From contig JAAOMT010000599.1 in the NCBI GenBank assembly GCA_016748015.1, forward strand, positions 393,099-457,098: DNA of 64,000 nt. Reading direction: 5' to 3'. Origin of the DNA: Geosiphon pyriformis uo1 (lineage: Eukaryota; Fungi; Glomeromycota). The position numbers and the translations under genes were made by a program. The notes beneath the pieces are model-generated. The model was not told the origin of the DNA. It did no database searches and worked only from the letters and a program-made list of their open reading frames with translations. Position 1 is the first letter of the stretch, and the number at the start of each line of letters is the position of its first letter. This document shows positions 7,401-36,563 of this stretch, piece after piece.

Positions 7401-8110
7401 CCCAAAATCTTAAACATTTTGTTTTAAAACTATTTAATTAAAAAAAAAAATATTTAGAAGTATCAATATTCACAAAAAATATATTAATAATTATTTTAAA
7501 AAAATTATTTAAAATTATGTCAAATTCAAATATTGGTTTTACAAAAAAAATAATTTGATTTAATAATTTAATAAAAATTATAAAATTATATAAAAATATT
7601 TAATCATAATATAACATAATAATAATCTTAAAAATATACTAATTAATATAATAATAATTACTAAATAGTATTAGCAATAAGCATTATCTTATAATAATAG
7701 CAGATATTATAATATAATAATAGCAGATATTATAATATAATAATAATAAACATATTAAAATATTAAAAATAAAGTATTACAATATTTTTTTTTAGAATTA
7801 TATATATATATATATAATAGTTTTAATATTAAGAAAAATTATTATTTATCTTTTATATAAATTATTTTTTAGTAATTTTTTTAAAAAATATCTAAATAAA
7901 CTTTTTTAATTAAAAAAAATCAAAAATAATATTAAATACTAAATTATAAATAGTAAAATATTAAAATATTATTTATTTATTTTTTTTATTAAAGATTTTA
8001 CAAGTGCAGCCCAACCACTACCTAAGTACATAGAATACACAGAATCTAAATTAAGCATGGTTCATGCTTTTTCTACATGTGACTAGCCACTTGGGCCAAC
8101 CAAGGCAGCA

Positions 8111-11100
8111 CTACGCATCCAGAATTCCCGCTACAGGAAAACCACTCAAGAAACTAAAGTCGAATTTTATAAGACACGGGTGCAACCTGAAGCACATGTG
8201 AACACCCAACCTGAAACTAAAATCTTGGATTGACCCAACAGACCACAAAAAAAACAGACCAGACACCGAAGAAAAGAAGGAGCCATCTTATAGCAAAAAG
8301 TTATGCTTTTTATAATAAGATCTCAACTTAGCCACTGGTATCCAAATGGCTGACCTGTAACTCTTAGCAAAACAACAAACAAAATCAACAACCAATGTGT
8401 CCTCACCAAAACCAGCACCCAAACAGCTTATCATGTCAGCCACCCAGTTTTTCAACACAAAACCTTTAGCCAGTACTATGAATAGGTTGATAGAAGATTC
8501 AGTCTTATGCAGTAACTTAGCAATTGCATTTCCATTGGCAGAAATTTTCAGTGCTACATTCCACTCCATAGAAGCATCAGACAACAAAGTTTCCCAAACA
8601 TTGGCATTATGAGCACAAGAAAACACGTAATCAAAGTCCTCCACCAATTCACACCTAATGTAAGCAATACTTGGATATCTCAGATTGTACAATCTTTTTT
8701 TTTGGCCACTGATAAGTGGTGGTGGAGCACTTTCATGAGATATAACTGAAGTGTCGCTGATGCACTACTGGTGTAGCCAGATTTGATCTTGTCATCAGGA
8801 TGCCAAACACAAAAGGTTTTGGCCTTATCAAAATGGTTACAGAGACCTGCACTAATGAAGCTACCAATACATTTGGCTTCCCAACTAACAGAGTGAACAG
8901 CATTAAACAATTTTTTGGCAATGTGACGAGCATTTCCAGAGACAAGCCTGTCTTCAACCCTGAGAAAGTGATAAAAAACCACAAGAGGCAGAAAGAACTT
9001 AGAAGCAACAGTGGCATCAGCATAAAAATTAGCACATTCATTTCTAACAACACCAGAATGACTCTTGACTTTGTTCCAAGTAATTGACAAGCCTTTTTTA
9101 GAGATGACATGACGAATATGTTCCTTTTTAATCCAGCATTTGTCATGAAAATCAGGACTAAACACACCATTGCCAGATTTGCACAAGTTTAGCAAAGCCT
9201 GGTTGTCAGTAAACAAATTAACAGACCAAGAAGTGGGCACACACTCTAAAGCAAATGCAATGGCTTACAGCTCCACCAGAATTGAGGACAACAACCCATC
9301 TATCTTGACCCTAATACTAACATTTGCATCCGGAAAGTAGACGGCAGCACCACCACAAACACCCAATGAACCCAAATCTTTGACAGAACCATCTGTATAG
9401 ACAGTTACAGAACTCAAATCAGAATCCAGTAAATGCTTATTAACATAACCAAAGTCACAAAGAGAGTCAGCAAGAGCTGAACAATAAGACAATGCCACAC
9501 GATTTAACAAACCACCCCCATTGATAAATTCAACCAATAAGACAAACCAGACAGGAACTGGGCCTCTAGGGTCCAGCTTCTTCCACCTGCAAAAAGTGTT
9601 CCACTCAAAACATACACCTTGGCAGTCCAAAAGCTGATGAACAAACACTATGCCGTACCTTCTAAGAGACTTTGCCATATGCAAATAAGACTCTAAACTG
9701 AGCACATCCAAAACTGCAATATTATTTTTGGCCCGAAAAACATCAGACAGATCACCACCCAATGAGAGGTTGCACAATTTGAGAGCACGTGTTGCACCAG
9801 CCAAAAAACAATTTGTGGGATCAATCAGCAAATTGATCGGAACTTTTAGAGGATGCCAGAGCATCCAGTTAGTGGCCTGCAACTTCATGGCTCTGTGCTC
9901 AAATAGCTTACTGAGGATTCCATCAGCATTTGCGAACACAACCAAGCCAGCCAATATATTCTCAGTCAGCATCTGTTCAAAAGTCCTTAAACCATATAAT
10001 TCTGGATGATACAAAGCCTTATTTGAAAAATCTTTGGGTAGATTGGCCTTGAGCTTTAACCCCTTCCTCAACATTTTGTTTCACTTTTCACAAACACTCT
10101 TAGAGATACAACTAAACTGTAGCCTGTAACTAATTATGGGCTGCAGAACAGCAGAGACCAAATACAAAAATTGCTTCTCAGTAATAACTTTCCTTAACAC
10201 TACATTTGAAAAGAACCTGATATCCGAATAGGCTTTGGCCAAACTTGGCTTAGATAGGCCATCTGTAGAAAGAAAGATCCCTAAGTATTGGTAAGACACA
10301 TTCTTCTTGGCAATAGAAATCTTAGAGCCACTGATTGACAAAAAAATCTCTCTGGCCTCTCAATTGATAGAAATGACAACTGTCTTATCTGTGTTGATAG
10401 CAATATTATTAATTAAAAAAATTCACTCATAATGTCCAAAATGTATTGTGTGGTTACCAGACAATTCCCAACCCAAATAGTGTCATCTACAAAGGCACCA
10501 ACTGCAAAAAAAGAGGTTCTGCCACCCTTAGGGTTAGCTCTACTTGTTCTGGTAAAAAATTTAAAATCCAACCTATAGCCGCATAATTGTTCATGCCTTT
10601 TGACCTCACAAAGCAGAGGGTTGTAAAAAATTTTTCACAACAATGGTGAAAAAACTTTCCCTTGATCCAACCCATTATGAACAGCATATCCATCAGTTAG
10701 ACCAAAGTCTGTCATTATCTGATTGGTTCAATTATTGTGTATATTTCCAAAAAATTCAATAAAATGGGGGCACATTTTGATCCTAGTTAGACTATTCCAC
10801 AGATGGGGCCACTTGACTGAGTCATAAGCTTTTCACATATCTTAAAGCACCAGCCACAGCTTCCTGTTCTTTTCAAGTGCATCTTCAACAATAGAACCAA
10901 TAGTGAAAATAGAAGTTTAAATAGATGTATTCTTTAACACTAAAAAATTGTCTCCACAAAGAACATCAGAAACACTACAAGCCAGAGATATTCTGTCAGA
11001 CAGAACCTTAGACAGTATCTTCCTGGCTGTCTCAATCAAAGCTATTGGCCTGGTATTGGTAAGTGTCTCTTTCCAATCATAGGGCTTTGGTATCATGGAA

Positions 11101-12796
11101 ACCCAGGCTTGCCTCCACTGTGAAGGAACTGCCTCAACTTTAAGCACACATTAAGAATGTCAAGCAGACCATCCAGAACCTGAGCATCTCCATGCTTTCA
11201 AAGCTCATTAGAAATACCAGACATGCCAGCAGCTTTTCCATCAGGCAGTCTTTTGACCACTAAGAGAAACTTATCCAATTTAATCATATTCATGACCTTT
11301 AAGAATGCATTATTACTGACATGGTCCAAGGGAGCATATTGATTAGACCAACGAACAGGCAAAGAGACAGGAGCAATCTGTTTTCTCATTCATTCCTCCA
11401 TGATTTCATTAACAGCAGACTTAACTTTCTTGGACTCCAAAATTAACTCATTGTCCAATATTAGATGGTCCAACACAACTTTTTTAAATGGCTGATCCAA
11501 AACACTCTTGATCATAAGTTCCTTATCAGAGCTAAAGTTTTCCATTTATTTGTCTATTGCTCTCCTGATTGAAATATCTCTGGTCACCCTAGACTCATAG
11601 TATTTAGACTTTCAGTACAATTTTCTGACTCTTGATAGGTGTTGAAGAATGCTTACCCTGCTCTCATTATCATCAAACATTGTGCACGCTTTGGAGGCTC
11701 CTTTACTATCAAGATTAGACCATACCTTAAAGAGACAAACAGCATCTGATTCTTGATTCAAGCTCAAACATTTTACCAACTTGGCCACCAACAATTCCAA
11801 CTTGAAAAACTTCAAAGACAGCTTATTTCTTGAACAGTCAAACTCACTAAACCAATGTCTAGAAAACACCTTATCTGCTAAGTTTAAGACCACATCCTTA
11901 AGGATCCTTCACATGACATCCAAATTTCCATTAACTTTTATATCATTGAATAAAACCATGTTTTCCAAGAACTTGTCTAAAGAACATTCCCTAAAGTGTG
12001 ACTACTTATTAGCATCCACATCCTTAATCTTGAATTTCCACTTATCTTTATTGGCCTGTTTACGCTCACTATTGAGACGGAAATCTAAGAGACCATCCAA
12101 ACCAATAGAAACCAGAACAGTATTATAATCAGTGTCAAAAAAATCAGAGACAGAAGTGACTTCATGACCAGCCAAAGCAGATGACAGACTCTTGCTCACA
12201 AAAATGTAGTCAATAATCTTCACGACACCCTGAAAATTGCCCCAAGTGAAAGCTTTGACCAGAGAATGTCCACTAAAGGAATTGACCAACCCCAAATTCA
12301 AGCAAAACTTAAGACTAGCACTCTTCCTAAATCCATCTTCATTGAAGTCACCACCCAGAACCATAAATGTAGAAGAATTAGCAGCCTTGGCAATAAGAGA
12401 GTTAATTTCGCAAGCTTAGCCAAATCTAGTCTTGGCAGAAGCACCTACATATAGGCCCAAAATCACTACTGACAACCTGCTCTTAAAAAGGAGCTGAACA
12501 GAGAAAAGATGACCAGGTACCTCTTCAACCTTAGAAACATGACGAGTAAGAGAATTGTTTACAATAATCATCACTCTAGCACCAAGAAACCCATTGTCCA
12601 AACCAGAAGAGAATATTCTCACTCCATCGAACTTGTTTATAATCCAAGGCCTAACATTAGACCTCAACTTTGTTTCTGTAACAATAGAAACCATATTCCC
12701 AGAATCAATGTGCCAACAAACAACATCTTCCTGCTTGGCAGGGACATTGATATCACGAGCATTGCATGTTGCAATTTTTCAAACCAGCTCTATTAT
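8111..12796 (-). pseudogene. LINE ORF2: APE endonuclease, reverse transcriptase, RNase H, C-terminal Cys motif
   Basis: IATCN...VTETKL, LGGDFN, IDYIFVS, FFDTD (EN); NTRPIALIE and GAFVDDTIW at about 10480-10500 (RT); VYTDGS, WNKVKSH..NECA (RNase H); many in-frame stops. Confidence 0.9.
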
Positions 12797-13571
12797 TGAG
12801 AAGAAAGAACATTGGGAACCAAATCAGCATTGTTAACTTTGGCCAAGAGGCCCATAACTGTAACTGAAAGATTGCGTAGAGTTTCCTCCATTTTAGAGAC
12901 AATTGAAGAGTCAAAAACTGCCACTCCTGTAATAGCCTCACCACCAGTGACTACACCCAAACCCTCACTCATCACTATATCTGCCTCTTAATTCTGTGAT
13001 GAAGGGGTCACCAATAGCTGACATCCAGAGCTAGGCTGAGAAACCATTGGCCCAAGTAAGTCCAATCTCTTAGCCAACTTGTCCATGTGTTCCACGAGGC
13101 TGGCAAGACTATGCTTAAGAGCAGCAAATCTATCATTTAATTCCACAGACACCAATGGAGTAAGTTTCATCTCCAAAGAAGAGCCAAAAGAAACTGAGTT
13201 ATCACATACAGAGAGAGGAGAAAAAAAAGACCCACCAACAATATTGGCCCATGAAATACCACCAAAAAACACAAGATAAGAGATTTGAGCAGAGCACCTT
13301 GTATAAATAGAAGCCAGTCTGCTTTTATCATCCTCAGACAATATTCTGCGAGCTAGTCCACCAGGGGAAGTTTTCTCACCCACAAAACAACCCAGAGATA
13401 TATGACCCAAATTCTCACACTTAGCACACTTAGCAGAACCCAGGTGAGCCCAACACAGATTAGCACCTTTTAAGACAGGTGTAGTTTCCATAACTGCATT
13501 AATTAAAGCAGCAGAGTTAAAACAAACAATAGCACATTTGGTCTGAGCATATATAACAGGGTGTTAATCAA
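12793..13571 (-). pseudogene. LINE ORF1, C-terminal half (CCHC zinc knuckle, coiled coil)
   Basis: CAKCENLGHISLGC (CX2CX4HX4C); stop at 12793-12795 overlaps the inferred ORF2 start. Confidence 0.8.
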
Positions 13572-14444
13572 TGTTACTTATAGAAATATAGGAAATATAT
13601 TAGCATAATTATTAGCCAATCAGAAGTAAGCATAGTAAATGTGGAATTCCAGGATTCCTCTCAGGAATTGCAGGATTCCAGGAATTTCAGGATTCCCCAA
13701 CGAGAAATTACAAGATTCCAGAATTCCAGGATTCCTCTCAAAGGAATCACAGAATTCCAGGAATTCCAGGATTCTTGTCATAAAGAATCAAGGAATTGAA
13801 GAATCTCAATTATCAGTAGTATTAAAAACAGAAAAGACAGAATTGATACTACAGAATCCTTAGCAAAGAAACTATTCATCAAATAAATAATTATTCCATT
13901 TTTCAATTCACTCTCCACTATCAACACTTCATGTTGATAGTAATTGATACTTAACCACGCTGGAACAATAGCTTTTGATCACGGCTATTGATGAGATACT
14001 AACTGACCACATTGCCTTGGCTTATTTTATTTAATTTCTTTATTTTTCCTTTATTTTATTTTCTTTCTTTTTTTGATTTTGTTGTTGTGTACTAATTGAT
14101 TAAAGGATTAAGCACTAAAGTTATTGACGTCAAGGATAGCCTGGTAAAAGACCCAGAAATAAGGGTAGGATTTATATATTATCGGATAGCTTACCAGAAG
14201 GGCATGACTGCCAGACTAAATCCGGCCACCACATTAAGAAAGAAATTGGAAAAACTATTTGAAAGATACACCTACTATTGACACTATTGAATCTCTGTCT
14301 ATTATACAAAGAACTCCATCAAACCCTTCAGATACAAAACTTTCAGATACCATACCTTCCACACATTATCCACGAAAGTAGCTTTTGAGTACCAAGTTAC
14401 GGGTTTGTTATTCAATACAACAGCAGAAATAATCATCTGTAACA
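13572..14444 (+). repeat. 5' LTR of A1 (873 bp)
   Basis: Direct repeat of 22844-23701; followed by the PBS. Confidence 0.95.
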
Positions 14445-14446
14445 TT

Positions 14447-14463
14447 TGGTGCTCCCTGTGAGA
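14447..14463 (+). promoter_or_regulatory. Primer binding site TGGTGCTCCCTGTGAG (tRNA identity not determined; Thr or Ile plausible)
   Basis: Starts with TGG 2 nt after the LTR end; the same motif follows the LTR at 60964. Confidence 0.85.
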
Positions 14464-14506
14464 TATAATCTTACAGAGAACCAGCACCAACAACACCAAA
14501 CCAAAA

Positions 14507-17500
14507 GTGGCAGAATCAGAAATTATAGGAGCAAACCATTTAGGATTCACAAAATCTTTATTTTAACACTATTGTCAATACTTGGGATTAAACCACAATC
14601 ATATATCTGCCGAATCAGTCTTCAATTTCTACATCAACAAAAAGATTTTCTCTTTATTAGAAACACCAGTGAATACTGAATCAGCAAGAAAAATTTTCTA
14701 TAAGGAATTAATTCAAAACACCAACCTACCAACAAACCATAATTTTGCATCCATTATCACTGAGATCAACAAAGAAATTGAACACCACACTCAACAAAGA
14801 TATCCAATTACATACGCTAGTAAAGGCAAGGGGAAATTACAAACCCCAGCAGTAACACCCTGAAAAATACAGCCACCTGCTTGGAAGAAAAACAGAGTTG
14901 AATCCTCAAGCAACCCATCATACCACTATACATCTGGAAGCGCCATCAACATATCATCAACTAACGCGTTTCCATCAACTGTGACATCAGCATTTGGATG
15001 ATTCCCATTCTAAAATAGACAAAGGAAAACAGAATTGTTAGAACCATATGGTGAATACTTTGAAGAATTTAATTCGCAATCATCAACCCCATTAGAACTT
15101 TGATCACCACTACCTTCACTAGATTTCGGAATCTCTAATCCATGGAAAGCAGCAGAATCAGAAAAGGAGGAAGAAGAATCAGAGGATCAAAAATTCACTT
15201 ACCTGCACCCGATCACTGAAAACCCGGAAGTTGAAACCCCGAACATTCAAACTCAGCAACAGTTAGAAAATCTGGAAATCAAAACTCCAAATATTTGAAC
15301 ACCGCCAAATCAAAAAAATCAAAACCCCAAATTAATTAATCAGCAAAACTTACCTCCGGTAATTGTCATTAATCAACTGCCAATTAATCCCATAGCCAAA
15401 CCCATACAGCAGCCACTTCAGCTACCACTCCAACAGCCAGGACAATAACAACTGCTTCAACAGCCACCACAACCACCTAACTTAGATCCAATGGCCTATG
15501 CACCAATCGCAAAACTTGACAACTTTACGGGCGAAGAAAATGACACTCAAATATGGCTGAATGATGTAGAAAAAGCCATCGCAGCCAACGGATGAAATGA
15601 CGCTTGAGCAATGCAAGCCATTCCCTACTTTCTCAAGAATACTGCCAATTCATGGTACTAGAGCTTGATTAATAAACCACAAGATTTTAATGCCTTCAAA
15701 ACAGAATTCCTAAGATACTTCAGCAACAATAACAGCATCAATTGCCTAGTCAATGCATTTACTACCATGAAACAAGAAGAAACTGAAACAGTCACCACTT
15801 ACCTGGGATGCTTCCATTGAAACCTATGCCAAATTCAAGCAATTAACGCCAACTATTTCACAGCACCACAGATACTCAATCAGTTTATCCATGGCCTGCG
15901 CAGCAGTATCTTACAACATGTATGTCCATTGCATTCAGGCACCCTTTAAAATGCAGTCACATGCACCAGAGATTTTGAATCCGCTGAGTCAGAGGCTAAC
16001 CACGCCCAAGCCGTTAATCTAGTAATGAACAGATCATCTGAATTGGATTCCAAATTGGAGAAGTTCAGTGAATCAATCAATAAGAGATTGGAAGAATACT
16101 TAGCTGACAATTATGCCATATATCAGCCTCCACAACGATGCAATAATCAAAGAAACTTTAATTGTGCTTAAAATCAATCACATCCATCTTCATCAACCAA
16201 TCAACAGTGGCAACAGGAAACGCGTATTTGCCACTATTGTGGTAAACAAGGACATATCCAAATTGACTGTCACCAGCAGTTAAATAACCAACAATTAGGA
16301 AATCTATATTGAAACCTCGATTGCTGGTTCCAAACTCTGAATCAGTACCCAAATCAAAACCCACCTGCTTACCTACTAGTGATACAGTCATCAGTCTATC
16401 AGTCTCCAGTATATCAACCTCCAATTTATCAGCTGCAGCCACAAGTAATATATCAACCGCAGCCACAAATAATCTATCAACCCTAACAGATCCAAACACC
16501 ACCCCAAAGCTTACCACCCAATGGAACCCAAAGACCGAGAATGACTCAACAGAGCTGGAGATCGGCAATGGTAGTCCATCAACCAATCCCCAGTTCTTTA
16601 CAGCAACCATCTGGATTACGCCAGTGGAATTTGGGTACCAGTCAACTCCAAAACCTGAATTCCCAGAACTATTTAAGTCTCTTGGTCACCCCAGAAGACA
16701 CTTCAACCAATAACCCAGCATTTACCCAAAAACAACTACTCACCAGTAATATCTCACCTGCTACCATTACCAAAGACAAGTCATTGGCCGCTATCTTCCC
16801 ATTTGAATTTGAAAAAACAGCTGCAATGCCATTATTTAGTGGAGCCGCTATTGAAGCCAAACCAATTACCGTGATATACACTGACACCAAAGTAGAAAGA
16901 CAATCCATCAAATTGATTCTGAACAGTGGTTCCGCAGGCAGCATAATCACAAGACAACTCATGGATCAATTAGGTCGCCGAGTTGATCGAGCTGCCAGCG
17001 CCAGAATCATCACAGCTGATGGAGCAACCAAAACTCCAATTGGCAAAATTGATAACTTTTCTTTTAAAGTCAATGGTATTATGACTCCTATTAAAGTTCT
17101 AGTGATGGAAGCCACTCAATACCAAGCTCTCGTTGGTAATAACTGGCTATCCAAAGTCAATGCAACATTAGACTGGAACACCCAGGAACTCCAGCTAACA
17201 TATCAAGGCCAATATATACATGTTCTGGCCATGTGTGGCCACTTCAAAACTCCTCCAAAAAAGAAACTATTGATCGAACTGGAGGAAGAGAAAAAAAAGC
17301 CTACCTGGGAAGTCTACCAAGTGTCATGGACGGACGAAGAGCACAACAAACTACCACCAATACTCTCCTGGGATGACAGCAACAAGAGAAAAGGGAAACA
17401 AACAGAAGAACTTACCTGGGAAACTGATGACCTGACATGGACTGACAACAACGAGAGTGAACCGACTTCAAGCTGGGAATAGGAAGAGGACAAAGAAAAT

Positions 17501-20500
17501 AAAGGAAAAGGGAAAGAAGAAGAGACCACCCAAACCACCATTATTTATAATACCTACACTATACCACAATAATCTACCTATCGTTGACCTAAGCTTATAT
17601 GTGTTGATTGTGGCAAAAAATTGTCGTCAATGGGCGCATGCTGTGGGGACGATGAGGAATATTCAATGGCAACTAGGTTCTATTGCCACTTATGTGTCCT
17701 TGAACGCTTTGGAAAATCCAAACAAGTAGGGAAATAGGACAATCAGCCATGCTTAGCTTGTGGAGAGACTCTCTTGGACGAAGGAATGTGGCATGACATT
17801 CCTGGACGTGGAGGAACGTGTGACGTAGAGTGTCAATACACGATTCTGATCAGCGACTGAGTTAAAAAGGAGACACCAATCGAAGCCACCTGGCAAAGAG
17901 CAGTGCGACAATTAGACAGTTGTCCACATGATGACGACAAAATTTGGAGAATGGCAACTGCCAAAATTAAAGGCGCATTGCCAGAAGAAATCCGGACAAT
18001 CAAAAACAACCCACCAGAACCTATTGAGCTTGACTGGGATGCAAAGCCAGTTATAAATTTTCTAGAACCAGAAGAGTTCCATGAACACTACCAAAACTTG
18101 GCACCCACTAGAGAAGAGCAAGAACAACGGCTAGTACAGTTAAATACAAAACTGTGTCGTCATTGTTTAATTCCCAGTGACTTTGAATATTGTGACGATT
18201 GTGACCTCATTTACAATCCACCACCATGCATGATTTACTCAATCCCTGAAGAAGAAGAACCAATCAGCAGCTGTGCATCGGAATCAGAATTGCTGATTAA
18301 TCGCGATCCAGACTCCGACGATGACAATGAAAACACTGGTTCCAGCTCCATTCAAAATGGCAATGATGACGAAAACAATTCAGACTCAGATTCAAAACCC
18401 AATTTAAACTATGAACAATACATTGCACTACCAGATCTCTCTAAGGAACAAGAGTTAAAATAGTATAGTGACAATGGGGAAGGTATTATGCCAGAATTTG
18501 TGCATAATACGGATGTAGAGTTTGATCTAAGATATTCAAAAAAAGATGCCATCAAATTAGAACCGCATTCACGCACCTGCATTGATCTGAAAATAGCACT
18601 AGAGATTCTAGCAACAACAATGGTTCAATTAGCATCTAGGAGTAGTTTAGTGAAAAGAGGGATCAATATAAGAGGAGGAATAATTGATGCAGGATATGTA
18701 GAAAATATTATCGCCATGCTACAAAATAACTCAGAAAAGGCCTATATAATAGAGCCCAATGAAAAGATAGCACAGACAATATTCCTGCCTCTGATTAGAG
18801 TAGCTCAGTTAGTGTCAGTGGGAAAGAGGGAGGAATTAGGAATAACAGCGAGAGGAATACAAGGATTTGGATCAACGGGTAGAATAGATATATCAGTTAA
18901 TATGGCAGAGGAAAAAATTGTTGGCCAAGGAGAAATTATCTCAACCGGTCAAGCTATTTCCATTCCACCATATAGCCAGTACATGTTAGCAATAAAAAGG
19001 AAGGAAAAAGAGCAAAAACAGATTTTTGAAGTGGAAACAACCCTTTGTGAATTAGGAGAAATTGGGTTGATCAATCTCCACATACCAGCCAAAAGCTATA
19101 GAAGCATAAAAATTCCCATCTACAACAACACTGACAATATCATCAACATACCAGAAGGAACCACTATCAGATATTTAACCACAGAAATAGAAAACCAACC
19201 ACCAAACTCCATTCCAGACTTTCCACAACTTTGTGGATATGTTGACATCACATCACAAACAATCTATGAATGAGACAAATGTTATTTGCTCCAACCAGAA
19301 CAATTGGAACAAATGAACATGGGAAACTTAAATCCACTCCAATGTATGCAGCTCAAGATGTTACTCAACAATTTCAATGACATCTTTGTCAGCGAAAATG
19401 AGTTTGGCCGAACTGATATCATCCAGCATCAAATCAAGACTGAAGATACAATGCCAATCAAACAAAGAGCATACAGAGTGCCACCAGCCAGCCACAAGAT
19501 TATTCGTCAAAAGATAAACAGAATGCTTGACAATGGGCTAATTCAATCATTAATGAGTTTATGGTCATTACCAGTGGTACTCGTCTGTAAGAAAAATGGA
19601 AAAATCCAGTTTTGTGTAGACTACAGGAAACTTAATGATGTAATTTGTGGAGACAGTTATCCAACTCCACAAATACAGAAATTATTCGATGCTTTCGGTG
19701 AGAACAAATGGTTCTCCACATTAGATTTGAACAGTGGTTACAGGGAAATAGCCATGAATCCAGCTGACAAAAAGAAGACAGCATTTATTACTAGAGAAGA
19801 GAATTTTGAATTTGAAGTAATGCCATTTGGGTTAACCAATACCCTTGCAACTTTTCAATAGCTAATGGAAATTGTTTATATTGGTTTATTGTGGAAATCA
19901 GTAGTTGTATACTTGGACAACACCAATGTATTCTCAAAGACATTTGATGATTATTTTCATCATCTTCAACAAGTGTTCGAAAGACTAAGAAGAGTAGGAC
20001 TAAAGTTAAATGTGACAAAGTGCTTTTTTGGCAAGACAAAACTCAAATTTTTGGAACACATAGTCAGCAAAGACGGCATCAAAATGGATCCAGAGAAAAT
20101 AGAGATAGTAAAGAACTTTCCAGTGCTGACTAATATAACAGAACTGAAATCATTCTTAGGATTTGCCAGTTACTATCGTCGTTTTATCAAGAACTTTTTC
20201 AAGATAGCACAGCCACTTAATCAATTGCAAAACAAAAATGCAAAATATAAATGGACAGAAAGTTAACAAGAAGCTTTTGATATTCTAAGAAAAAAGCTTA
20301 TCCAAGCTCCAGTACTGATCTATCCAAATTACAGCAAACCATTCATCATCACCACTGATGCATCCGGCCAAGCATTGGGAGCAATATTATCTTAGAGAGG
20401 ACCAGACGGCAGAGAACATCCAGTAGCATATGCCAGTAGAGGTTTAACACCAGCCGAAAAGAACTATAGAACACCAGAACAAGAACACTTAGCAATATAC

Positions 20501-20710
20501 TACATTATGAAATGGAAAGAATACTTGAGCCAGAAGTTTGAAGTATACACAGATCACAAGGAATTAACATCACTTCAAAAACAAGAATTTGGAGATGGAA
20601 GACAGTCAAGATGGAAAATAGCACTTGCACCATACAATTATACTATACATTACAAAAAGGGAAAAGACAACAGAAATGCTGACAGTTTATCGTGAATAAG
20701 ACAAATCTAA
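14507..20710 (+). pseudogene. Single-frame Gag-PR-Cys-rich-dUTPase-RT-RNase H polyprotein of A1
   Basis: Track ORFs starting at 14582, 16541, 17903, 18488, 19286, 19865 and 20507 all share one frame; capsid-like MAYAPIAKLDNFTGE at 15491; CHYCGKQGHIQIDC knuckle; IL(D>N)SGSAGS protease; FCVDYRKLN, YLD(D>N), TDASG, VYTDH, NADSLS. Confidence 0.9.
18488..18890 (+). pseudogene. dUTPase domain inside Gypsy pol
   Basis: Trimeric dUTPase motifs: EFDL, SRSSL, GGIIDAGY, EKIAQ, RGIQGFGSTG. Confidence 0.9.
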
Positions 20711-20773
20711 GAACATTTCAACCCAAAAATATAATAAAACCAGAACAATACCAATGGAAAAATACAACAAAAG

Positions 20774-22146
20774 ATGAACATACAAAAATATCAACAATTG
20801 CAACACTATCTAAACACTCAACAGTTCAAGGAGAATTTATCTCATATGGAATGAAGGAGTATCAAACAATAATCAAAATATTATATTACTTACCAAAATA
20901 TACTTTATTGGAAAAATAAAAAGGATCCAGATCAACCAACCAGAGTAATTACGGAGCCAGAAAAAGAGACAATATTATTCAACATGCACTCAAATCCAAC
21001 AGCAGGACATTTTCACAAAGAAGCAACCATGAAAAGAACTAGAAAAAGATACTATTGGCCATCAATATACCCAGACATCATTCAATATGTTCAAAATTGT
21101 GATGCTTGTCAGTGAAGAAGAGGAACAAGATTCAGTGAATCATTAAGACCAATCAAAGTGGGACAACTATTTGACTGTATGGAAATTGATTTAGTTGGAC
21201 CATTAACAATTACCAGCAGAGGAAACAGATACATAGCAGTAGCTATGGACTATCTCACTAAATGGCCAGAGACGAAAGCAATTCAAAGAGTGGATACAGA
21301 ATCCATTGCCAAATTTGTTCATTAGGATTTGATTTGTCGACATGGATGTCCAAAAGAATTATTATCAGACCAAGGAACTCATTTTGTGAACAGAACATTA
21401 ACAGAATTGAGCCAAAGATTCAGAATCAAGAGACCATTATCATCACCATATCATCCACAAACCAACAGATTAGTAGAAAAATTCAACAGAACATTGTGTG
21501 AAACAATAGCCAAGCTCAGCCAAAAAAACCAGAACAATTGGAATTTGTTCATACCATCAGTACTATTTGCTTATCGGACAACGAAACAGGATACTACACA
21601 AGCAAATTAGTATATGAGAGAATAGCAATGTTACCAGTAGAGAGAGAAATTAATACATATCCAGCTGAACCAATAACAGAAAAAAATTTTCAAGAAACAT
21701 TGTTGAGAAAAACATATGACTTAATAAAAACATTGGAAAACAAATGAAGAAGAGCAGCTGATAATATCTAAAAGTCATAAGAAACACAGAAAAAAAGACA
21801 CGATAGTCAACTACCAGACAAACCAGTTAAATTCAAGATCGGAGACAAAGTATTATTACATCGTACCAAAGTGGAAAAACAATGGAGTAGAAAATTTGAT
21901 CCCAAATGGGATGGACCATTTCACATAGAAGAAATTCTAGGAAATGGAGCTTACAAATTAAGATTGGATAACAAAATTTTAACCAAAGCAGCACATGGAG
22001 ATTGACTGAAATCATATCACAACATCACACTACCATCTACCAGTAATATTTCACAATTAGGAGTACAGAGAATACTAGTCTAACCAGATGAGATTCTTCA
22101 AGATCTGGAACCAATCATTATTATCAACAACAACATGTTAAATTGA
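20774..22146 (+). pseudogene. Integrase of A1, encoded as a separate ORF
   Basis: ATG at 20774; HHCC (MHSNPTAGH...CDAC), DDE core (GIDL, LLSDQG, LVEKFN), KWDGPF motif; one frameshift near 21600. Confidence 0.85.
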
Positions 22147-22200
22147 TTCATCAAAAGAATATATAAAGACATGATAGACATGACAGGAAATATCAGAAAA

Positions 22201-22830
22201 ATGGAAATTACAAACAACATTCACGCATTAGCACAACAACTCTTTTAATTAATCCAACACCAGGAAATGGAGATTACAATCAATCAACAAACCATTCAAT
22301 ATCAAGATACTAGAAAGACATTTCAACTCAGAACACAGAAGAAAACTGAAAATACTGTAGACAAAATCATGGCAAAAGTAAAATTAGCAATAAAAAAATC
22401 GACAAAAGAATCACTATATCAAGAGTTGACTAAAAAAACTTGGAATTGGTGGATACAACAATTTCCATGAAACTATTGTTATTTTTACTTGGGACAACAC
22501 ATAAATATCCAGAATCTATATACAGATAAAACAAAGTAATTATTTGACAAAAGAATACTACAACAATTAGAACATTTTGTGGGAAAGAACAACTTATTCA
22601 TACAAGCCTGAGCCATATACCGAATACACACAGTATTTTAGAATAAACCAGAAATATTGCTCAACAGAGCAATGGATATGATTACCAGTAATCAATTGGG
22701 AAAAATCACAAATGCTCAATTTGAAGAATTACAGACCCAAATAACACAAGTAATTCTTGAAAACAAAATCCAGGAAATACTTCAAAAGGGGGAATTACAT
22801 AAGTTAGATTTCGACGGAGCTCAATATTAA
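22201..22830 (+). pseudogene. Extra ORF (ORF3) in the env position, about 210 aa, unknown function
   Basis: One frame MEITNNIH...DFDGAQY* ending at the PPT; homologs at 56238-56873 and about 45320-46030. Confidence 0.75.
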
Positions 22831-22840
22831 AAGGAGGGAA
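22829..22840 (+). promoter_or_regulatory. Polypurine tract
   Basis: aaaaggagggaa, 3 nt before the 3' LTR. Confidence 0.85.
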
Positions 22841-22843
22841 TAA

Positions 22844-23701
22844 TGTTACTCATAGAAATATAGGAAATATATTAGCATAATTATTAGCCAATCAGAAGTA
22901 AGTGTAGTAAATGTGGAATTCCAGAATTTCTCTCAGGAATTGCAGAATTCCAGGAATTTCAGAATTCCCCAACGAGAAATTGCAGGATTCCAGAATTCCA
23001 AGATTCCTGTCGTAAAGAATCAAGGAATTGAGGGATCCCAATTATGTATATATAGCAGTAGTGTTAGAAACAGAAAAGACAGAATCGATACTACAGAATC
23101 CTTAGCAAAGAAACCAATCATCAAATAAATAATTATTCCATTTCTCAATCCACTCTCCACTATCAACACTTCATGTTGATAGTAATTGATACTTAACCAC
23201 GTTGGAACAATAGCTTTTGATCATGGCTATTGATGAGATACTAACCGACCACATTGTCTTGGCTTATTTTATTTAATTTCTTTATTTTTTCTTTATTTTA
23301 TTTTCTTTTTTTCTTTGATTTTGTTGTTGTGTACTAATTGATTAAAGGATTAAGCACTGAAGTTATTGACATCAAGGATAATCTGGTAAAAGACCCAAAA
23401 ATAAGGGTAGGATTTATATATTATCGGATAGCTTACCAGAAGGGCACAACTGCCAAACTAAATTTGGCCACCATGTTGAGAAAGAAATTGGGAAAACTAT
23501 TTGAAAAATATATCTACTATTGACACTATTGAATCTCTGTCTATTATACAAAGGACTCTATTAAACTCTTCAGATACAAAACCTTCAGATACAAAATTTT
23601 CAGATATCATACCTTCCGCATATTATCCACGAAAGTAGCTTTTGAGCACCAAGTTATGGGTTTGTTATTCAATACAACAGCAGAAATAATTACCTGTAAC
23701 A
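22844..23701 (+). repeat. 3' LTR of A1 (858 bp) with TATA box at about 23047-23055
   Basis: Direct repeat of the 5' LTR; tgtatatatagcagt motif. Confidence 0.95.
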
Positions 23702-24720
23702 TTGATAACACATGTTTTTCTACCTACAGAACCAATAAAGTCTCAGATATCATGTGCATTAGTGCCCATCAGCAGTGTGTAGAGCAAAGCCCTATGCTGA
23801 TCTTTTGTGTCCTATGATTCCTTGTCCAAATTAGCCTTAGCCACTCTCACAGCATCTTTTCCGATCAAGATGGACCATCTAGCTGCGACCAAATTAGCCT
23901 AATCTGATTGGGCAAATTCAACCACAGCCTTTTGCCATAGCCCTACCAATTGCATTTTGATTGACACAACAGAACCAAATTCAGAAAGTGCAACATGCAC
24001 AGCTTCAACTGATGTTCCAACTGGAATTTCCTTTACCACCACAGCCCAATCTGAATGATCAGTTGGTTTCTTGAGATCGGTGTTAACCAAGATTTTTGCA
24101 TCTCCAGCCTTTTTTGAAGCCTGCACCAAGTTCAATTCAGAAGTGAACGTTGCTCTGATGATCCCAGCAAATTTTGAGGAAGTAAAGGCTCTTCCAAAAC
24201 CATTGATTCCTGAAAATAATTTCCTGACTGCAGAAAGTTTCTCTTGAGAGAATTTCCCAATCACTTTTTTCAACCCAATATTTAGAGCAAATGACTTTCG
24301 AACAGAGACATTAACCAGATTTTTCAAAGGAGGAGGAAGTTCTAAATGACCACCTAATAAAACATTATCATCATCATTGTTGCCCAAAAAATTAATTTTG
24401 CCCAGAGATTTACCCAAAGCTTGCTTAGTAACCACTTTAGGCCCTTTGGGTGTTTGGTTAATGTCTTTTTCTTTCAAAAGATCACTTTCTCCATAATCTA
24501 CACTAGTTTCCTCGATCAAAAACTCCTTTTCCATGTCCACACTGTCGGATTTAGTAGTATTCCCAGCCTCAGACCCCCAAGAACCACTAACTGCTTTATC
24601 AGACACAACCATTTTTTGAGCAGCACCATTCTTTAGAACACCACCTTTTCTTTTTTTCCTAGAAGCAATGTCCTTACTAACAGTATTAACACTAAAGCCT
24701 TTGGTAGACTTTTTCATCAC
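23702..24720 (-). pseudogene. LINE ORF1, N-terminal half (RRM-like)
   Basis: 273-aa ORF containing AVVVKEIPVGTSVEAVHVALSEFGSVVSIKMQ...AVVEF; continues in frame on the other side of the Gypsy insertion. Confidence 0.8.
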
Positions 24721-25152
24721 AACAACACTGAAACCAACAATGGCCTCATAATCAAGCAGAAACAGTTTGGATTTATCGTACTGAATTGTAAAAAACTTCT
24801 TTTTAAAAAAAACTTATGACTCTTTTTCAGGAATTTGGGACAAAGGAAAGAAAGAAGTTTTTTTTTATTATTTAAATTATCTATTAAATAAAATTATTAT
24901 TTAGCAGTTGAATTTTTTAAAAGAATAATTTTTAATTAAAATTATTTATATTATTACTAATTAATAAAAGCTTTATTATTAAAATTAGAAAAAATACTAT
25001 AAAATTATTAATATTTTATGTTTTTAGATTAGAAAAACACTTTAAATAATTACAAAAATAACTTTAATTAGCTTTTGGAAAAAAATACATAAAAATACAC
25101 AACAATTAAAAATTAAAAAATAATTTATATTATGATATTAACAAGAAAAGCT

Positions 25153-25441
25153 TTTGTTATTTTTTTATTTATTATTGTTTTATAAGTGAGGTCCAAATAC
25201 TGCCTATAACTATACATTAAAAAAATAATCTAAAATAGGTGTGAATTATGCACTTTCTATACGTGACCAGTTACTCAGGCCAATCAGAACAACACTATGC
25301 AGTTATATAAACTAAAACTAAGCCACCAACACCCAAAAAAAATAAACAAGATTTGCAAAAACCAAAACACATGCCAAAAACCTCAGTAATACCAAACAAT
25401 TTGACCACATTAGCAGAAAATTCTGAAGCCAAACCAGACAC
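25153..25441 (-). mobile_element. LINE 3' end fragment
   Basis: T-rich tail, conserved 3' UTR hairpin motif, ORF2 C-terminus (VSGLASEFS...FGFCKSCLFF). Confidence 0.75.
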
Positions 25442-26269
25442 TGTTACAAGTGATTATTTAGGGTCTTAAATCAAATAACAAATCCATAACTTGGTGCTAA
25501 TTTGCTTGATATTAGTAATATTTAAAGGTTTTGATATCTGAAAGTTTTGGGTTGAGTTTTTTATGTAATAGACAAATATTTAATTGTTGTAATCTATAGC
25601 TTTCTGGAATCACAATTCCATCAAATTTCTTTTTTAATGTGATGGCTAGTAATCCTTCTGGTAAGCTATCCTCAATTGAGTATTTTATCCTTATTTCTGA
25701 ATTTTTTACCAGTCACTTTAATGTCAATACTCTGCACATTAATCCCTAATTCAATTAGTAAACAACCAAAAAATACAAACAAAAGAAAAAAAAAGAAATA
25801 AAGAAAATGAAGAAATTAAGCCAAGATAATTAAGTTAGTATCTCATTAATAGCTGTAATTAAGAGCTATTGTTTCAGTAAGATCAAGTATTCATTACTAT
25901 TAACACTTTATATTGATAATAAAAAGTGAATTAAGATAGCAAATAATTATTTATTGATATTTGTGATTTTAGAAAAATTGTTTAGATAAAATCTAAACTA
26001 AGAAGTCTGTTTTTTTTGCTTTTAATACTACTGCTATATATACATAATTAAGATTTTTCAATTTTTTAATTCTTTACATTAAGAATTCTGGAATTTCTGG
26101 AATTCTGCAATTTCTTTGAGAGGAATCTTGAAATTCTGGAATCTTGTAATTTCTCATATGAGAATCCTACAATTTCTTTAAGAAGAATTCTAGAATTCTA
26201 TATTTACTATGGCTACTTCTAATTGGCTAATTTATATGCTAATATACTATCTATATTCTAATAGTAACA
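25442..26269 (-). mobile_element. Solo LTR, family A, without a matching TSD
   Basis: tgttaca...gtaaca; homologous throughout to 13572-14444; flanks acac/tcag. Confidence 0.85.
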
Positions 26270-28164: not shown

Positions 28165-30645
28165 AATTGTTTATTTTTTTTTATTTTTTTAATAAGTGAG
28201 GTCCAAATGCAACCTAGTACTATACATTATACTAATGATCTAAACTAGGAGTAAATCATGCACTTTCTACACATGACCAGCCACTCAGACCAGTCAGGAC
28301 AACACTATACACTTATATGCACAGAGACCAAACCCCCAACATCTAAGAAAAATAAACAAAACTTACAAAACCCAAAATCAACTCCAAAAGCTTCAGCTAC
28401 ACCCAGCAATCTTACAATGCCAGCCGAGAATGCTATAGGCAAACCATAAATTAATGCAGAAATGGAGCTGTCACAAAGAATCAAACTATGCTTCTCTATA
28501 AAGGCCTAGTGTTTGGCACAGACCAACCAGATATCATCCCAAAATGTGAGGCACAAAGTCCACAATCTTTTTAGTCCCAACCTTAAAATCTTTAAAAACC
28601 AAGACAGACTCACAATACCAATCATTAAAAACAAAGCTCTTATACAGAGCAACATTAACTCCAACCTCGAAAACACAAGAAGCCAATAACTGTGAAACAC
28701 GTGAGAAGAATCAAAACAAAACAGAAAAAGCCTCCCAAGCTAAAGCATAAGTGTCCAACAACTGAGCACAATCAGCAGCATCATGGGGACAAGAAAAGAT
28801 ATGATCCAAGACCTCAATATTACTACAGTACAAACACACCACATTAGGATAATCTCTATCATACAAACGCTTATAAACAGCAACCAAAAGCCAATAATAG
28901 AGGGCTTTTATGAAGTATGTCTGACAACTAGCTGTATACACACTAGTGAAACCAGCAGCCAAGTGAAAATTGAGGTGCCAAACCAGAGAGAACTTAAACC
29001 AATTAATATCAACATGCAAACTATCCACCACGACCTGAGAACCAGACCCAACCTCCCACTGAGCATGATGAACAGAATGGAAAACATCACACATAAAGTG
29101 TCTAGAGTTACCAGAAACCATGGCCCTACCAGCACTAAGAAAACGTTCACTGACCAAGTGAGACAATTGCCAAGCAGAGAGGGCAGCATTCTTGGCAAGT
29201 GCATCCACATGCTTATTGCTTGAGATGCCTAAATAACCCTTGACTTTAATTCAATTCACATCCAAATTTTTACAACAAATGACGTTAGTAATGTGACAAT
29301 GCTCGATCCAACAATAGTTTCTAAAATCCAGACAAACCAGCAGAGACTCTGACCTGCATGCATCCAAAATGGCTTGACTGTTTGAAAACAAGTCAACCGA
29401 ACAAAAAGAAGGCACACACTTAAGAGCCAAAGTAATGGCTTGCAATTCTGTTAGAGTAGAAGAAATCAAACCAGATACTCCTACACCCAAACCTGAGTTA
29501 ATGTCCTCAAAAAAAATGATGGCGCCAGCCTTCATGTCAACAGTGCTCAAACTACACAGAGACCCATCCATATAAACAGAAAGGCAAGAGGCATCAATGG
29601 TCAGCAGAGTGTCACAAACTGCACCAAAATCATGAAAATGACAAACATCAGAATCAACATGCCTATCCAAAAAGGAAAAACAAATAGAAGAAGGAAAACC
29701 ACCACCAAGAAAGCAAATGGAGAGGTCAAACCAGAAAGGGACTGGACCATGAGGGTCCAACCTCTTCCAACACTTGAAGATACTCCAACTGAAGACATCA
29801 CCTTTATGGTCATGAAGCTGTTCCACAAAAGCAATCCCATATTGTCTGAGAGAAGAGACACATTTGAAAAAATAGGGTTTACCAAGAACCAGAGACATAG
29901 GAGTACCAATCTGACAGCAAAAAGCACAAGCCAAAGAGCCGCCCAAAGACAAATCATACTCGGAAAAAATACGAACCACACCAGCCAAAAAATTATTCGA
30001 GGAGCTGACACCAACATGAGCTGGAAACAGCAAAGGATGATGAGGATGCCAGCTGAGAACTTAAAGGTCATAAAACCTGTAAGAAAACAAGCGACCCAAA
30101 ACACCAGTGGAATTTGCAAAAACAACAATGAAAGCAAATTTGCCCTCAGCCTAAATCTGTTCAAAAGTTTTTAAACTGTACAAAGAGGGATGATGAAGTA
30201 CATTATTGGGGAAATCATATGGCAGCCCAGACTTAGACTTTAAAATCTGCATACCAGAGTGTTCCACTTATTACAAACACTAATAAGAACAAAACTAAAC
30301 TGAGTTCTATAGCTGATGATAGGAAAGAGAACTACAGATACCAAATAAGCACACTGTTTGTCTGATATTGCCTTTTTCAAAACCAGATTCACAAAAAACC
30401 ACATGTCAGATTAAGCCTTAGCCAAGCTAAACTTTGAAAGACTCTCAGAGAACAAAAAAATATCCAGATAATGATGAGATTCCTTCTTCTTGGCAATGGA
30501 AATAGGTGCACCACTAATAGTCAGACAAGAACTCACAATCCAACAGTTAATAGAGATGGCTACTGTCTTGTCATTATTTATCGAAATATCATTAAACCTG
30601 AAAAATTCACTAGCAACATCAAGAATGTGTTATGTAGCAGCTTAG
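28165..30645 (-). mobile_element. LINE 3' half (RT tail, RNase H, Cys motif), tail-to-tail with the previous copy
   Basis: VYMDGS, TELQAITLAL, VCLYCSNIEVLDHIFSC; 3' UTR and T-rich tail. Confidence 0.85.
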
Positions 30646-31988
30646 ATTGTTTATTTAAATTTAAATTTTTTAATATATTTTATTAAATCATAAATATTTA
30701 AAAAATAAACTTTGTGTTTATTTTTGAATTGATTAAAATTTTTAAATAAATTATTAATCAATATATAAAGTACATAAGCCATATCTTATTTAGAATACTT
30801 AATTATTGTATTATATTAAATAGTAATTAAACCTTACTTATTAATTAAATTAACAATATTTTTAATTTAAAGAAATTAAGTTTTTATATTTATAACAGAA
30901 TTAATATTGGTAATTAGTAAAAAAAAATTAAATTTACCAAAGATTTAATTTTTTTAATTACAAATTTTACCAAATTTGACAATTTTTATAACTTAAATTT
31001 TAGTAAACACAATTTTGTTTTATATATTTTATTAAAAACTTCAAATTAAAAAATATTACAATTTTAATATAAAATATTAAACCAATAAAATAATTTGTAA
31101 AAGCTTTAAATTTTATTAAAAACTTTAAAAAAATCTTTAATAAACCAAAAAAACATTTATAATTAATAGACATATAGTTTAAAATAATAATAATATTTAA
31201 AATTTTTTTATTAAATATAACTTTTTTCCAAAGTACTTATTTTAACAATTGCAATATTAAGAGTTTTTTAAAAACTAAAAAACAAAAATAATCATAAACT
31301 TAAACAAATATATTACTAATTTCAAAAATAATAGCCAAAAAAAATTTATTTAATATATTATGAAAAATAATTATCTTGTTCTTTTACTAAAACAAGTTAA
31401 TAAAGAAGAGCAGTTTTAAAAGTTTTAGAATTTTAATAATATATTGTTATTAACCAATAGACTTTATTAAAAATTTTAAAATTTATCTTTATTGATTATT
31501 TTAATAATAATTAATCTAGATTTTATTAGCAAAAAATTTTTTAATATCAAAAAATTTTAAATTTTTATATATTTTATTAAAAAATACTTTATTAAAATTA
31601 TTGTAAAAGATGAAAAACAATTGTATTAGTTTAAAATTATATAGCAATAAATTACCTAAAAATTAAAATTAACAATAATTATTTATTCAATTATTTTGAT
31701 TATCAACAAATTATTTTTATTTGTTTAAAGTTTATAATTTTGTTTGCAACTTTAAATTTCCTAGAACATTGTTTTTACGAATCATGTATCTGATGTAGAC
31801 ATGGCTGATACTTTATTGGGGTCAATGAATCTGAAGTTTTCAATAGTTCCAAAAAGACAGTAAACCACATTATCATAATTTGAAGACTAATGCATTCTAA
31901 TCGTCATTGCCCAAAAGATCTTAAGCACTGAGTAAATTTGGCAAGGTGATTATGCAGCTTTCAATATGTTTTTATTTACATCCCAGGC

Positions 31989-36513: not shown

Positions 36514-36563
36514 AGATTGAAACAGCCAATCAATTTATCAGTAAAAAAATATAATCTGTAATA

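Follow-up and report, generated by a model that had tools for sequence, protein, structure and literature searches.

LTR retroelements generally bring integrase (IN) into the particle inside the Pol polyprotein, which is then cut by the protease (PR). Fungal Gypsy elements have been published with either one Gag-Pol ORF or two ORFs (accessible text of PMC2864245), and their IN is the last part of pol (accessible text of PMC3248453). A dUTPase is also on record for such elements, namely PosPlaTy3-5 of Postia, elements of Phanerochaete, and Tmt1 of Tuber, and in PosPlaTy3-5 it lies between PR and reverse transcriptase (RT) (PMC2864245, same text). In Geosiphon pyriformis, 41.2% of the genome consists of LTR elements, as given in the accessible part of PMC11952901. 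We analyzed a 64,000-nt stretch of this genome (the window), in which the element A1 (13572–23701) is a decayed Ty3/Gypsy LTR element whose top-scoring matches are from the same species. We give a somewhat better than even chance to the reading that A1 is a decayed fungal Ty3/Gypsy element with a stop after RNase H (RH), in which IN and a third ORF (ORF3) have their own frames and AUGs and IN is probably translated by stop-restart.

All A1 features are on the forward strand. The TG...CA LTRs (5′, 13572–14444; 3′, 22844–23701) are identical at 777 positions and differ by 54 transitions and 2 transversions. The primer-binding site (PBS) TGGTGCTCCCTGTGAG is 3′ of the 5′ LTR, with TGGTGCTCCCTGTGAGAT at 14447–14464, and the polypurine tract (PPT) AAAAGGAGGGAATAA (22829–22843) is directly 5′ of the 3′ LTR. 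No tRNA gene was found within the 64-kb window, and the primer tRNA of A1 thus has no candidate there. The flanking TCAA (13568–13571) and TTGA (23702–23705) likely represent one 4-bp target-site duplication (TSD) decayed at CpG. The interrupted ORF around A1 keeps its frame when 4 bases are removed, and equally when 1 or 7 are.

ORF1 of A1 (14465–20710, decayed) is a single frame from 14465 to 20707 closed by a TAA at 20708–20710, and its first codon reads ATA. It measures 2081 codons, in agreement with the single Gag to RNase H frame of ~2070 codons in the preliminary description. Counted from 14429, its frame has 27 internal stops, and the other two have 135 and 137. Read with X, the frame gave Pfam matches in the order Retrotrans_gag, protease, dUTPase (E 7e-15), RVT_1, and RNase H, which place the capsid at about 15620–15901, PR at 16883–17152, dUTPase at 18488–18880, RT at 19589–20053, and RH at 20252–20635. 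A CCHC knuckle at about 16229–16270 was recognized by eye in the translation. A Cys-rich domain with several CxxC pairs (17588–18229) lies between PR and the dUTPase, so the positions of both domains between PR and RT agree with the original account. Beyond the stop, an A/C-rich spacer of 63 nt with more in-frame stops inside (20711–20773) leads to the IN ORF (20774–22146), which has its own ATG at 20774, an H2C2 motif, a D-D35-E core, an SH3/GPY-F tail, and one copy-specific frameshift near 21610. It is followed by ORF3 (22201–22830, 209 codons, decayed); a separate IN ORF and then a third ORF ending at the PPT, as first proposed, were thus seen in A1.

The window holds further copies of family A and of a second family, B. 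On the reverse strand, A2 (55346–60111) is a 3′ half with RT-RH, a stop at 58345–58343, a 30-nt spacer, the IN ATG at 58312, ORF3, and a 3′ LTR at 55346–56223; relative to its spacer, that of A1 has a 33-nt insertion. A2 is cut by A3 (60112–61569, forward strand; 5′ LTR, PBS, and gag start), which is itself broken at about 61570 by B2 (61570–64000, forward strand), of which the 5′ part (LTR, gag, and protease) runs off the window end. B1 (44323–53759, reverse strand; 3′ LTR at about 44323–45308, 5′ LTR running into an N gap) has the same gene order as A1, which bears out the earlier claim that the two families share one layout. Its RH stop (47588–47586) is followed by a 50-nt spacer and by IN from 47535 in a different frame, with a start codon that reads ATA. 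B1 also has frameshifts at A-runs in PR and RT, and its ORF3 continues across the PPT into the LTR. Two solo LTRs of family A lie on the reverse strand, one with the 4-bp TSD CTGT/CTGT (42654–43489) and one with unmatched flanks (25442–26269, ACAC/TCAG). The 4-bp TSDs claimed at first therefore held for two of the three testable insertions, A1 and the solo LTR at 42654–43489, and failed for the other solo LTR.

The RH stop follows R-Q-x in A1, A2, and B1 alike. A1 alone cannot prove that IN is split from Pol, because IN is in frame with RH in both A1 and A2, but the split is provable from B1, in which IN leaves the RH frame, and from relatives. Among related loci, which were picked by similarity to stand-alone integrases and include near-duplicates, IN was split from RH in all 39 with an RH end and an IN ATG, in frames 0, +1, and +2 relative to RH at 10, 15, and 14 loci, respectively. 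The 30 aligned intact homologues were all stand-alone integrases of 405–438 aa, whose start Met fell at the window's start column in 28, just before it in one, and later in one. The IN AUG had a Kozak-like context, with a purine at −3 in 63 and G at +4 in 57 of 71 loci. In run X1, where 1736 contigs were aligned to 20640–20840 and variants at ≥8% were considered, no alternative letter was found at the TAA at 20708–20710 or at the IN ATG, and a stop at 20693 varied in 76–80 contigs. The sharing of the stop after RNase H by A1, A2, and B1 and its constancy in run X1 show that it is ancestral and not a product of decay. A search of IMG/VR returned just three weak, unrelated integrase loci.

Split elements formed one branch against all fused ones in both the RT and IN trees. 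The RT branch had an SH-aLRT of 100 in a tree that included 41 fused Pols and was built under a simplified model without bootstrapping, and the IN branch had 100/100 with one change; outgroups in both trees were database hits only, with the named ones from a pearl oyster and a carp cluster. A1 has the Ty3/Gypsy features of TG...CA LTRs, PBS, PPT, and short TSD, the order PR-RT-RH-IN, and a Ty3-type RT, RNase H, and capsid; the location of IN within Pol, a usual trait and not a formal criterion of the group, is lacking. The IN tail of A1 matched only SH3_Tf2-1 in Pfam and had no chromodomain, and none was listed for 120 homologues. Our literature search found no description of a Gypsy clade with separate IN; GyDB, Repbase Reports, and subscription papers were outside its scope.

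The search of relatives for the A1 domain order recovered the split IN and ORF3, but of 80 related loci only 2 had the dUTPase and none had the Cys-rich domain, which was confined to families A and B of the window and Geosiphon-type proteins. By this distribution, the two domains are additions on the Geosiphon side. The dUTPase scored 63 bits against a Pfam cut-off of 22 (trimeric dUTPase family), and its five motifs were recognizable by eye, though decayed in A1. By analogy, it would limit uracil in cDNA (accessible text of PMC2864245). The Cys-rich domain was 34% identical between A1 and B1, had no Pfam match, and reached Atlas scores of 0.79 at most. Gag and Pol are fused in some relatives and separate in others; because this fusion varies and both extra domains belong to the Geosiphon side, the full A1 layout is not clade-wide. 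In the loci compared, what the clade shares is a separate IN and an ORF3. The distinct multi-gene clade suggested at the outset thus stands on the RT and IN branches at 100 and on the recurrence of split IN and ORF3, and loses dUTPase and the Cys-rich domain as clade marks.

ORF3 was present in 27 of 47 relatives, and the A1 copy is a member of this clade-wide family of all-helical proteins of 140–240 aa, placed before the PPT or across it. None of 30 members exceeded the Pfam cut-off, and ORF3 had no sequence match in PDB, no Atlas match, and no plasmid match. DUF1016_N, reached at E 0.037 by one of the 30 members with no support elsewhere, was rejected as an assignment. No Foldseek match in PDB or BFVD reached E ≤ 0.001, and a wide structural search had a top Z of 4.4, which is not proof of a new fold. 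No env match was found in Pfam, PDB, or BFVD, so the label retrovirus-like in the preliminary description applies to gene organization only. A likely role of ORF3 is to aid expression or to counter silencing, and at loci where it is more than 1 kb from IN it may be transcribed separately.

IN is likely made by a route undescribed for Ty3/Gypsy in the literature covered by our search. Given the split, the junction sequences suggest stop-restart with about an even chance: ribosomes finishing the polyprotein would restart at the nearby IN AUG on full-length RNA, and free IN, not being fused, would have to be carried into the particle through binding to RNA, RT, or Gag. RH-IN junctions overlapped or were ≤2 nt apart at 12 of 39 loci, including three TAATG and one ATGA, and these overlaps count for restart because they serve fungal victoriviruses and a hypovirus (accessible text of PMC6631646). 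Among the 22 spacers of 24–192 nt, 17 were free of ATG (12 ATGs seen versus 24.3 expected) and 10 had no YAG acceptor. However, 27 of 39 spacers were ≥24 nt, and five of 365–943 nt held 7–27 ATGs; at least three of these five spacers look like decayed extensions. Reinitiation past a 2000-codon ORF normally requires a helper signal, which also counts against restart. Simple restart cannot yield ORF3 at the 3 of 28 loci where it is >1 kb beyond IN, because 12–27 ATGs lie between them.

Foamy virus Pol comes from a subgenomic mRNA. Production of IN and ORF3 from subgenomic mRNAs, through internal promoters or splicing, would leave the anatomy unchanged and is a rather unlikely alternative that nevertheless accounts for several observations. 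Spacer length and frame are unconstrained, the AUG context is strong, and the AUG-poor leaders equally suit a 5′ UTR. A TATA-like run was seen by eye 45–75 nt before the ORF3 ATG in L021, L022, and L028, where ORF3 is >1 kb from IN, and ORF3s typically come from spliced messages (accessible text of PMC5408684). Against it, the sequence before the IN AUG showed no enrichment of YAG (34 versus 36.9 expected, 48 de-replicated contexts) or TATA (18 versus 21.7 expected), A2 has no AG in its 30-nt spacer, and the recurrent stop/start overlaps are not predicted.

Internal ribosome entry, with structured or A-rich spacers drawing ribosomes to the IN AUG, appears improbable. A conserved stem-bulge-stem of ~40 nt ends within ~12 nt of the IN ATG at more than 20 loci, with an exact core at 20 of 80; in the RNAalifold structure, two-sided changes occurred at 8 of 13 pairs and 96% of cells pair. 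However, one subclade carries the hairpin, whereas the window families and the majority of other subclades lack it, and the shuffle test is inflated by the relatedness of its sequences. Rfam gave chance hits alone (7 loci) and no hairpin match. The hairpin would be equally consistent with internal entry or with a site for protein binding.

That readthrough or frameshifting joins IN to Pol, or that the stop marks decay in a pol of the ordinary fused kind, is in keeping with the shared RH-IN frame of A1 and A2 and with A1 stops each reachable by one transition, but is very improbable and already largely refuted by the three frames and the spacers from −20 to >100 nt, most with extra IN-frame stops just upstream, by an RH stop invariant in run X1 where a neighboring stop varies, by the IN start Met at one column in 61 of 71 loci, and by the absence of any of 41 fused Pols from the split clade.

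An old, diverse lineage that uncouples IN from Pol must solve translation, dosage, and packaging otherwise. The window copies would have been inactivated after the domain gain, likely by methylation-driven C>T decay; CpG observed/expected was 0.36 versus 1.0 in a host gene. The window families were abundant in run X1 (33,248 contigs aligned to 3 kb of sequence), and the integrase route is testable because Rhizophagus irregularis carries intact versions in multiple copies, for example at the loci of GET66802.1. We infer that the many stand-alone genes annotated in mycorrhizal fungi as 'DDE-type integrase/transposase' are retrotransposon parts. The caulimovirus TAV licenses downstream translation. 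By analogy, a large polycistronic Ty3/Gypsy clade of mycorrhizal fungi might make free IN by stop-restart or structured entry, with ORF3 as a trans-activator licensing downstream translation, possibly by binding the hairpin; we regard this as quite unlikely. If true, it would offer a model for the uncoupling of IN from Pol, a step implied by IN-less pararetroviruses.

Compared with canonical Ty3/Gypsy elements, such as yeast Ty3 and the animal Gypsy Pols, the latter being the nearest fused matches, the window lineage is alike in its LTRs, tRNA-type PBS, PPT, Ty3-type capsid with CCHC, and the order PR-RT-RH-IN, but differs in that IN occupies an ORF apart from Pol and starts at an AUG of its own, and in having a conserved ORF3. 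PosPlaTy3-5 of Postia shares the dUTPase between PR and RT, and a separate IN is not reported for the Postia, Phanerochaete, and Tuber elements in the accessible text of PMC2864245. In contrast to these dUTPase-bearing elements, the A1 IN has no chromodomain and the A1 Cys-rich domain is unmatched. LTR elements of bdelloid rotifers resemble A1 in a dUTPase in pol and a third ORF not recognized as env, but they keep IN within pol, and their ORF3s belong to env, GDSL, DEDDy, TM, or coiled-coil types (accessible text of PMC5408684). The ORF3 of the window lineage had no Pfam match to these types. The AUGA and UAAUG overlaps of victorivirus and hypovirus stop-restart (accessible text of PMC6631646) were found at 4 of 39 RH-IN junctions. 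Those viruses are unrelated RNA viruses, and most junctions here have spacers.

Caulimoviruses have a PR-RT-RH unit ending without IN, and in foamy viruses an enzyme gene is translated independently of Gag. The window lineage is like the former in its PR-RT-RH unit without IN and like the latter in an enzyme gene separate from Gag. Caulimoviruses lack IN (accessible text of PMC2774666). A1 itself retains both LTRs and IN. By search scores, the RT of A1 lies far nearer to Ty3, its best solved relative (E 1e-29), than to foamy virus and 8r0s (1e-11).

The LTR retroelement A1 (13572–23701, forward strand) was found to carry one Gag-to-RNase H frame of 2081 codons by frame count, running from 14465 to a TAA at 20708–20710 (+). 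Counted from 14429, the coding frame contained 27 internal stops vs. 135 and 137 in the other two, and its translation with X at stops read capsid, protease (PR), dUTPase, reverse transcriptase (RT), and RNase H (RH) in order, with a Cys-rich stretch before the dUTPase (34% identity with that of B1, a diverged family-B copy). The layout in the preliminary description, one long frame with the Cys-rich domain and dUTPase between PR and RT, was thus recovered in A1, as was the separate integrase (IN) ORF followed by a third ORF (ORF3) ending at the polypurine tract (PPT). The integrase ORF (ATG at 20774, end at 22146, +; one copy-specific frameshift) encodes H2C2, D-D35-E, and an SH3 tail and lacks a chromodomain, and the stop of ORF3 (22201–22830, +) overlaps the PPT. 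The TSDs, described earlier as 4 bp, had this length in two of the three testable insertions of the window and not in the third. The nearest named proteins were from Geosiphon pyriformis, both for the region before RT (77–90%) and for the B1 ORF3 (83%). About 120 amino acids between dUTPase and RT (18902–19270), conserved in the related family-A copy A2 and in Geosiphon proteins, had no Pfam match and are possibly, at a guess, a degenerate second dUTPase-like domain. A GGAGC(T/A)C-like DNA motif, often translated as AGA(R/Q) at the ORF3 end, recurred directly before the PPT at window 22810–22843 and at the ORF3 3′ ends of many related metagenome loci, and may be a cis signal.

AT-rich and eukaryotic, the window contains decayed, nested retroelements as well as one or more host genes. 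A PPR protein (31989–34532, −; frame of 847 aa) and a Methyltransf_28-type SAM-dependent methyltransferase are encoded at 31989–36534 (−). Methylation-driven decay has likely degraded the A1 copy: over 833 aligned bases, its two LTRs show 54 transitions and 2 transversions, and its CpG o/e was 0.36, vs. 1.0 in the PPR gene, where CpG is not depleted. Decayed copies of another, probably LINE-like, repeat family occupied 1–2300, 7900–13570 with 23702–25400, 28200–30700, 38800–42600, and 54500–55340; it gave a weak RNase H match at 8683–9264, and A1 is inserted inside one of its ORFs. The B1 dUTPase contains an exact 183-bp tandem duplication (49543–49908), either recent or an assembly artefact.

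Since the A1 integrase shares the RNase H frame, the RH stop could have been decay of an ordinary fused pol; four tests on the sequences indicate that it is not. In A2 (77% DNA identity), this stop is present together with another within the 30-nt spacer; in B1 (53% RT identity), the frame ends at the corresponding R-Q-x position and the integrase follows in another frame after 50 nt. When 1736 contigs of sequencing run X1, which may be the window's own source and thus represent other copies in the genome rather than another organism, were aligned on 20640–20840, neither 20708–20710 nor the integrase ATG showed an alternative letter at 8% or more, unlike the TGA at 20693, which was variable in 76–80 contigs. 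An integrase search, in which fused forms could not appear, returned 697 homologues of 164–524 aa; among 30 aligned, the start Met lay at the window's start column in 28, just before it in one, and later in one. Among the best 80 of 533 confirmed metagenome loci, some near-duplicates, IN was split from Pol in 39 of 39 with an RNase H end motif and a placed ATG (9 loci without a placed ATG, 5 of them cut by the contig start, and 32 without the motif being excluded), with 10, 15, and 14 integrases in frames 0, +1, and +2 relative to RNase H. Of the 71 loci with a placed ATG, 61 have it where the alignment predicts; position −3 is a purine in 63 of the 71, and position +4 is G in 57. The common A2/B1 stop, the X1 invariance, the Met column, and the 39 split loci in three frames argue against decay and bear out the proposed free-standing integrase.

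For integrase expression we favour stop-restart on full-length RNA, in which ribosomes would finish the polyprotein and restart at the integrase AUG. Twelve of 39 RH-IN junctions overlapped or were at most 2 nt apart (three TAATG, one ATGA), and overlaps of this type serve in fungal RNA viruses, according to the accessible text of PMC6631646. Among the 22 spacers of 24–192 nt, 17 had no ATG and 10 no YAG. Against restart, most spacers were at least 24 nt, and five were 365–943 nt with ATGs. A separate transcript is pointed to at least for ORF3 in three of 28 loci, where it lay >1 kb downstream, preceded by TATA-like runs; for the integrase, the lack of acceptor or TATA motif enrichment in 48 de-replicated upstream regions speaks against one. 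The varying frame and spacer lengths (−20 to +943) exclude a conserved frameshift or readthrough; integrase translation has to begin at its own AUG. We infer packaging of the free integrase and roles for ORF3 and the Cys-rich domain.

A conserved stem-bulge-stem lies just before the integrase AUG in a single subclade to which the window copies do not belong; 20 of 80 loci have its exact core, further variants occur, and it was absent from the window. The motif, G-TGAAAGC-NN-AAG-TG-N4-CA-NN-GTGA-N4'-CA-GC, ends within ~12 nt of the ATG (L011:1124–1172, L013:289–337, L015:580–629, and ~20 further loci). In an alignment of 20 copies, both sides had changed in 8 of the 13 pairs, and 96% of cells were paired, vs. 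21–50% in slid controls; Rfam gave no match.

The RT search, restricted to long proteins, returned both split and fused Pols, and the 33 closest by RT-RH identity all lacked integrase. The RT-RH tree (quick search, SH-aLRT without bootstrap) had 122 rows: the 93 of 120 hits and 26 of 80 loci with ≥300 aligned residues, and three window copies. One branch (SH-aLRT 100) divided 71 rows, namely the window copies, every one of the 26 split loci, 31 Pols that terminate with RNase H, and 11 others, from 51 that included all 41 fused Pols; P0156 was the sole RNase-H-terminating protein on the fused side. The same division, with one change, was obtained at 100/100 in a tree of 74 integrase rows, made up of 32 of the 41 fused Pols, the 39 split loci, and the three window copies. 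The suggested distinct lineage therefore held in both trees, whose root was not inferred and whose outgroups were database hits rather than curated reference clades; the split elements may still belong to a named home clade. Named hosts on the split side were Geosiphon, Rhizophagus irregularis, R. clarus, and Paraglomus brasilianum.

As a lineage mark, the full layout stood only in part: split integrase and ORF3 recur and mark the clade, and the complete Gag-PR-Cys-rich-dUTPase-RT-RH order is that of the Geosiphon families, because the other components vary. dUTPase occurred only in L074 and L078 among 80 loci (28–36% identity, different subtree), L074 being the one case among the 14 loci where PR and RT both gave matches; the Cys-rich domain occurred in 0 of 80. 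Gag and Pol form a single frame in L058, L074, P0134, and P0166 and occupy two frames in L007 and L022; in L062, L077, and L080, a stop interrupts Gag-Pol between PR and RT. In-frame stops upstream of RT (L062:2884, L080:3292, L066:872, L049:904, L077:3360), mostly in one subclade, suggest that RT-RH, too, may form a separate or readthrough unit in these loci. Long C-terminal extensions past RNase H characterized one subclade (L012, L021, L027, L031, L039, L043, L054, and L058, with 216–344 aa; L077:3394–6702; and P0200, with Cys/His motifs); those scanned had no Pfam match.

An ORF3-family ORF was present in 27 of 47 loci with sequence beyond the integrase; single-linkage BLAST clustering at E ≤ 1e-3 placed these ORFs and the Geosiphon ORF3s in a single family. 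The window type was joined to a short 140–160 aa type through L008, a weak link (13–18% identity to L013), and both types have a Y-x-x-G / R-x-Y-x-x-F pattern. The AlphaFold model of the L013 ORF3 was all-helical and confident (pLDDT 94), with no match by sequence or by fold. L014:1945–2889 holds a NUDIX-domain ORF (E 1e-10) in the usual ORF3 place, and L007:6546–6944 a different 132-aa ORF after the integrase, its C-terminus HTH-like by eye. Additional ORFs of charged or coiled-coil-like composition, most of them antisense and lying before ORF3 where it is visible, followed the integrase at L021:2780–3346 (−), L020:2520–3035 (−), L028:7089–7358 (−), L026:2272–2604 (−), and L022:7458–8258 (+).

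We consider the split-integrase organisation real. Our literature search, which covered the text of papers, found no description of it, nor was it found in the accessible text of PMC2774666, PMC5009743, or 10.1101/2023.09.13.557621. Papers on AMF transposons, as far as their text was accessible, treat Gypsy/LTR at superfamily level (10.1101/2021.03.30.436303; PMC11952901), the word "integrase" appearing once in the former and never in the latter. The dUTPase, described earlier as rare in Metaviridae, has a placement in A1 that is already published: the accessible part of PMC2864245 describes a dUTPase between PR and RT in a Postia Gypsy element, as in A1, and cites Phanerochaete and Tuber cases. 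Non-env ORF3s beside dUTPase-bearing Pols are likewise known, from rotifers (PMC5408684, accessible text). A1 works like a Ty3/Gypsy element by structure and RT, without the usual IN-in-Pol state and without a chromodomain. In the accessible survey texts on fungal Gypsy elements, pol ends with IN and the element has one or two ORFs (PMC2864245; PMC3248453), whereas the A1 clade has IN in a separate ORF.
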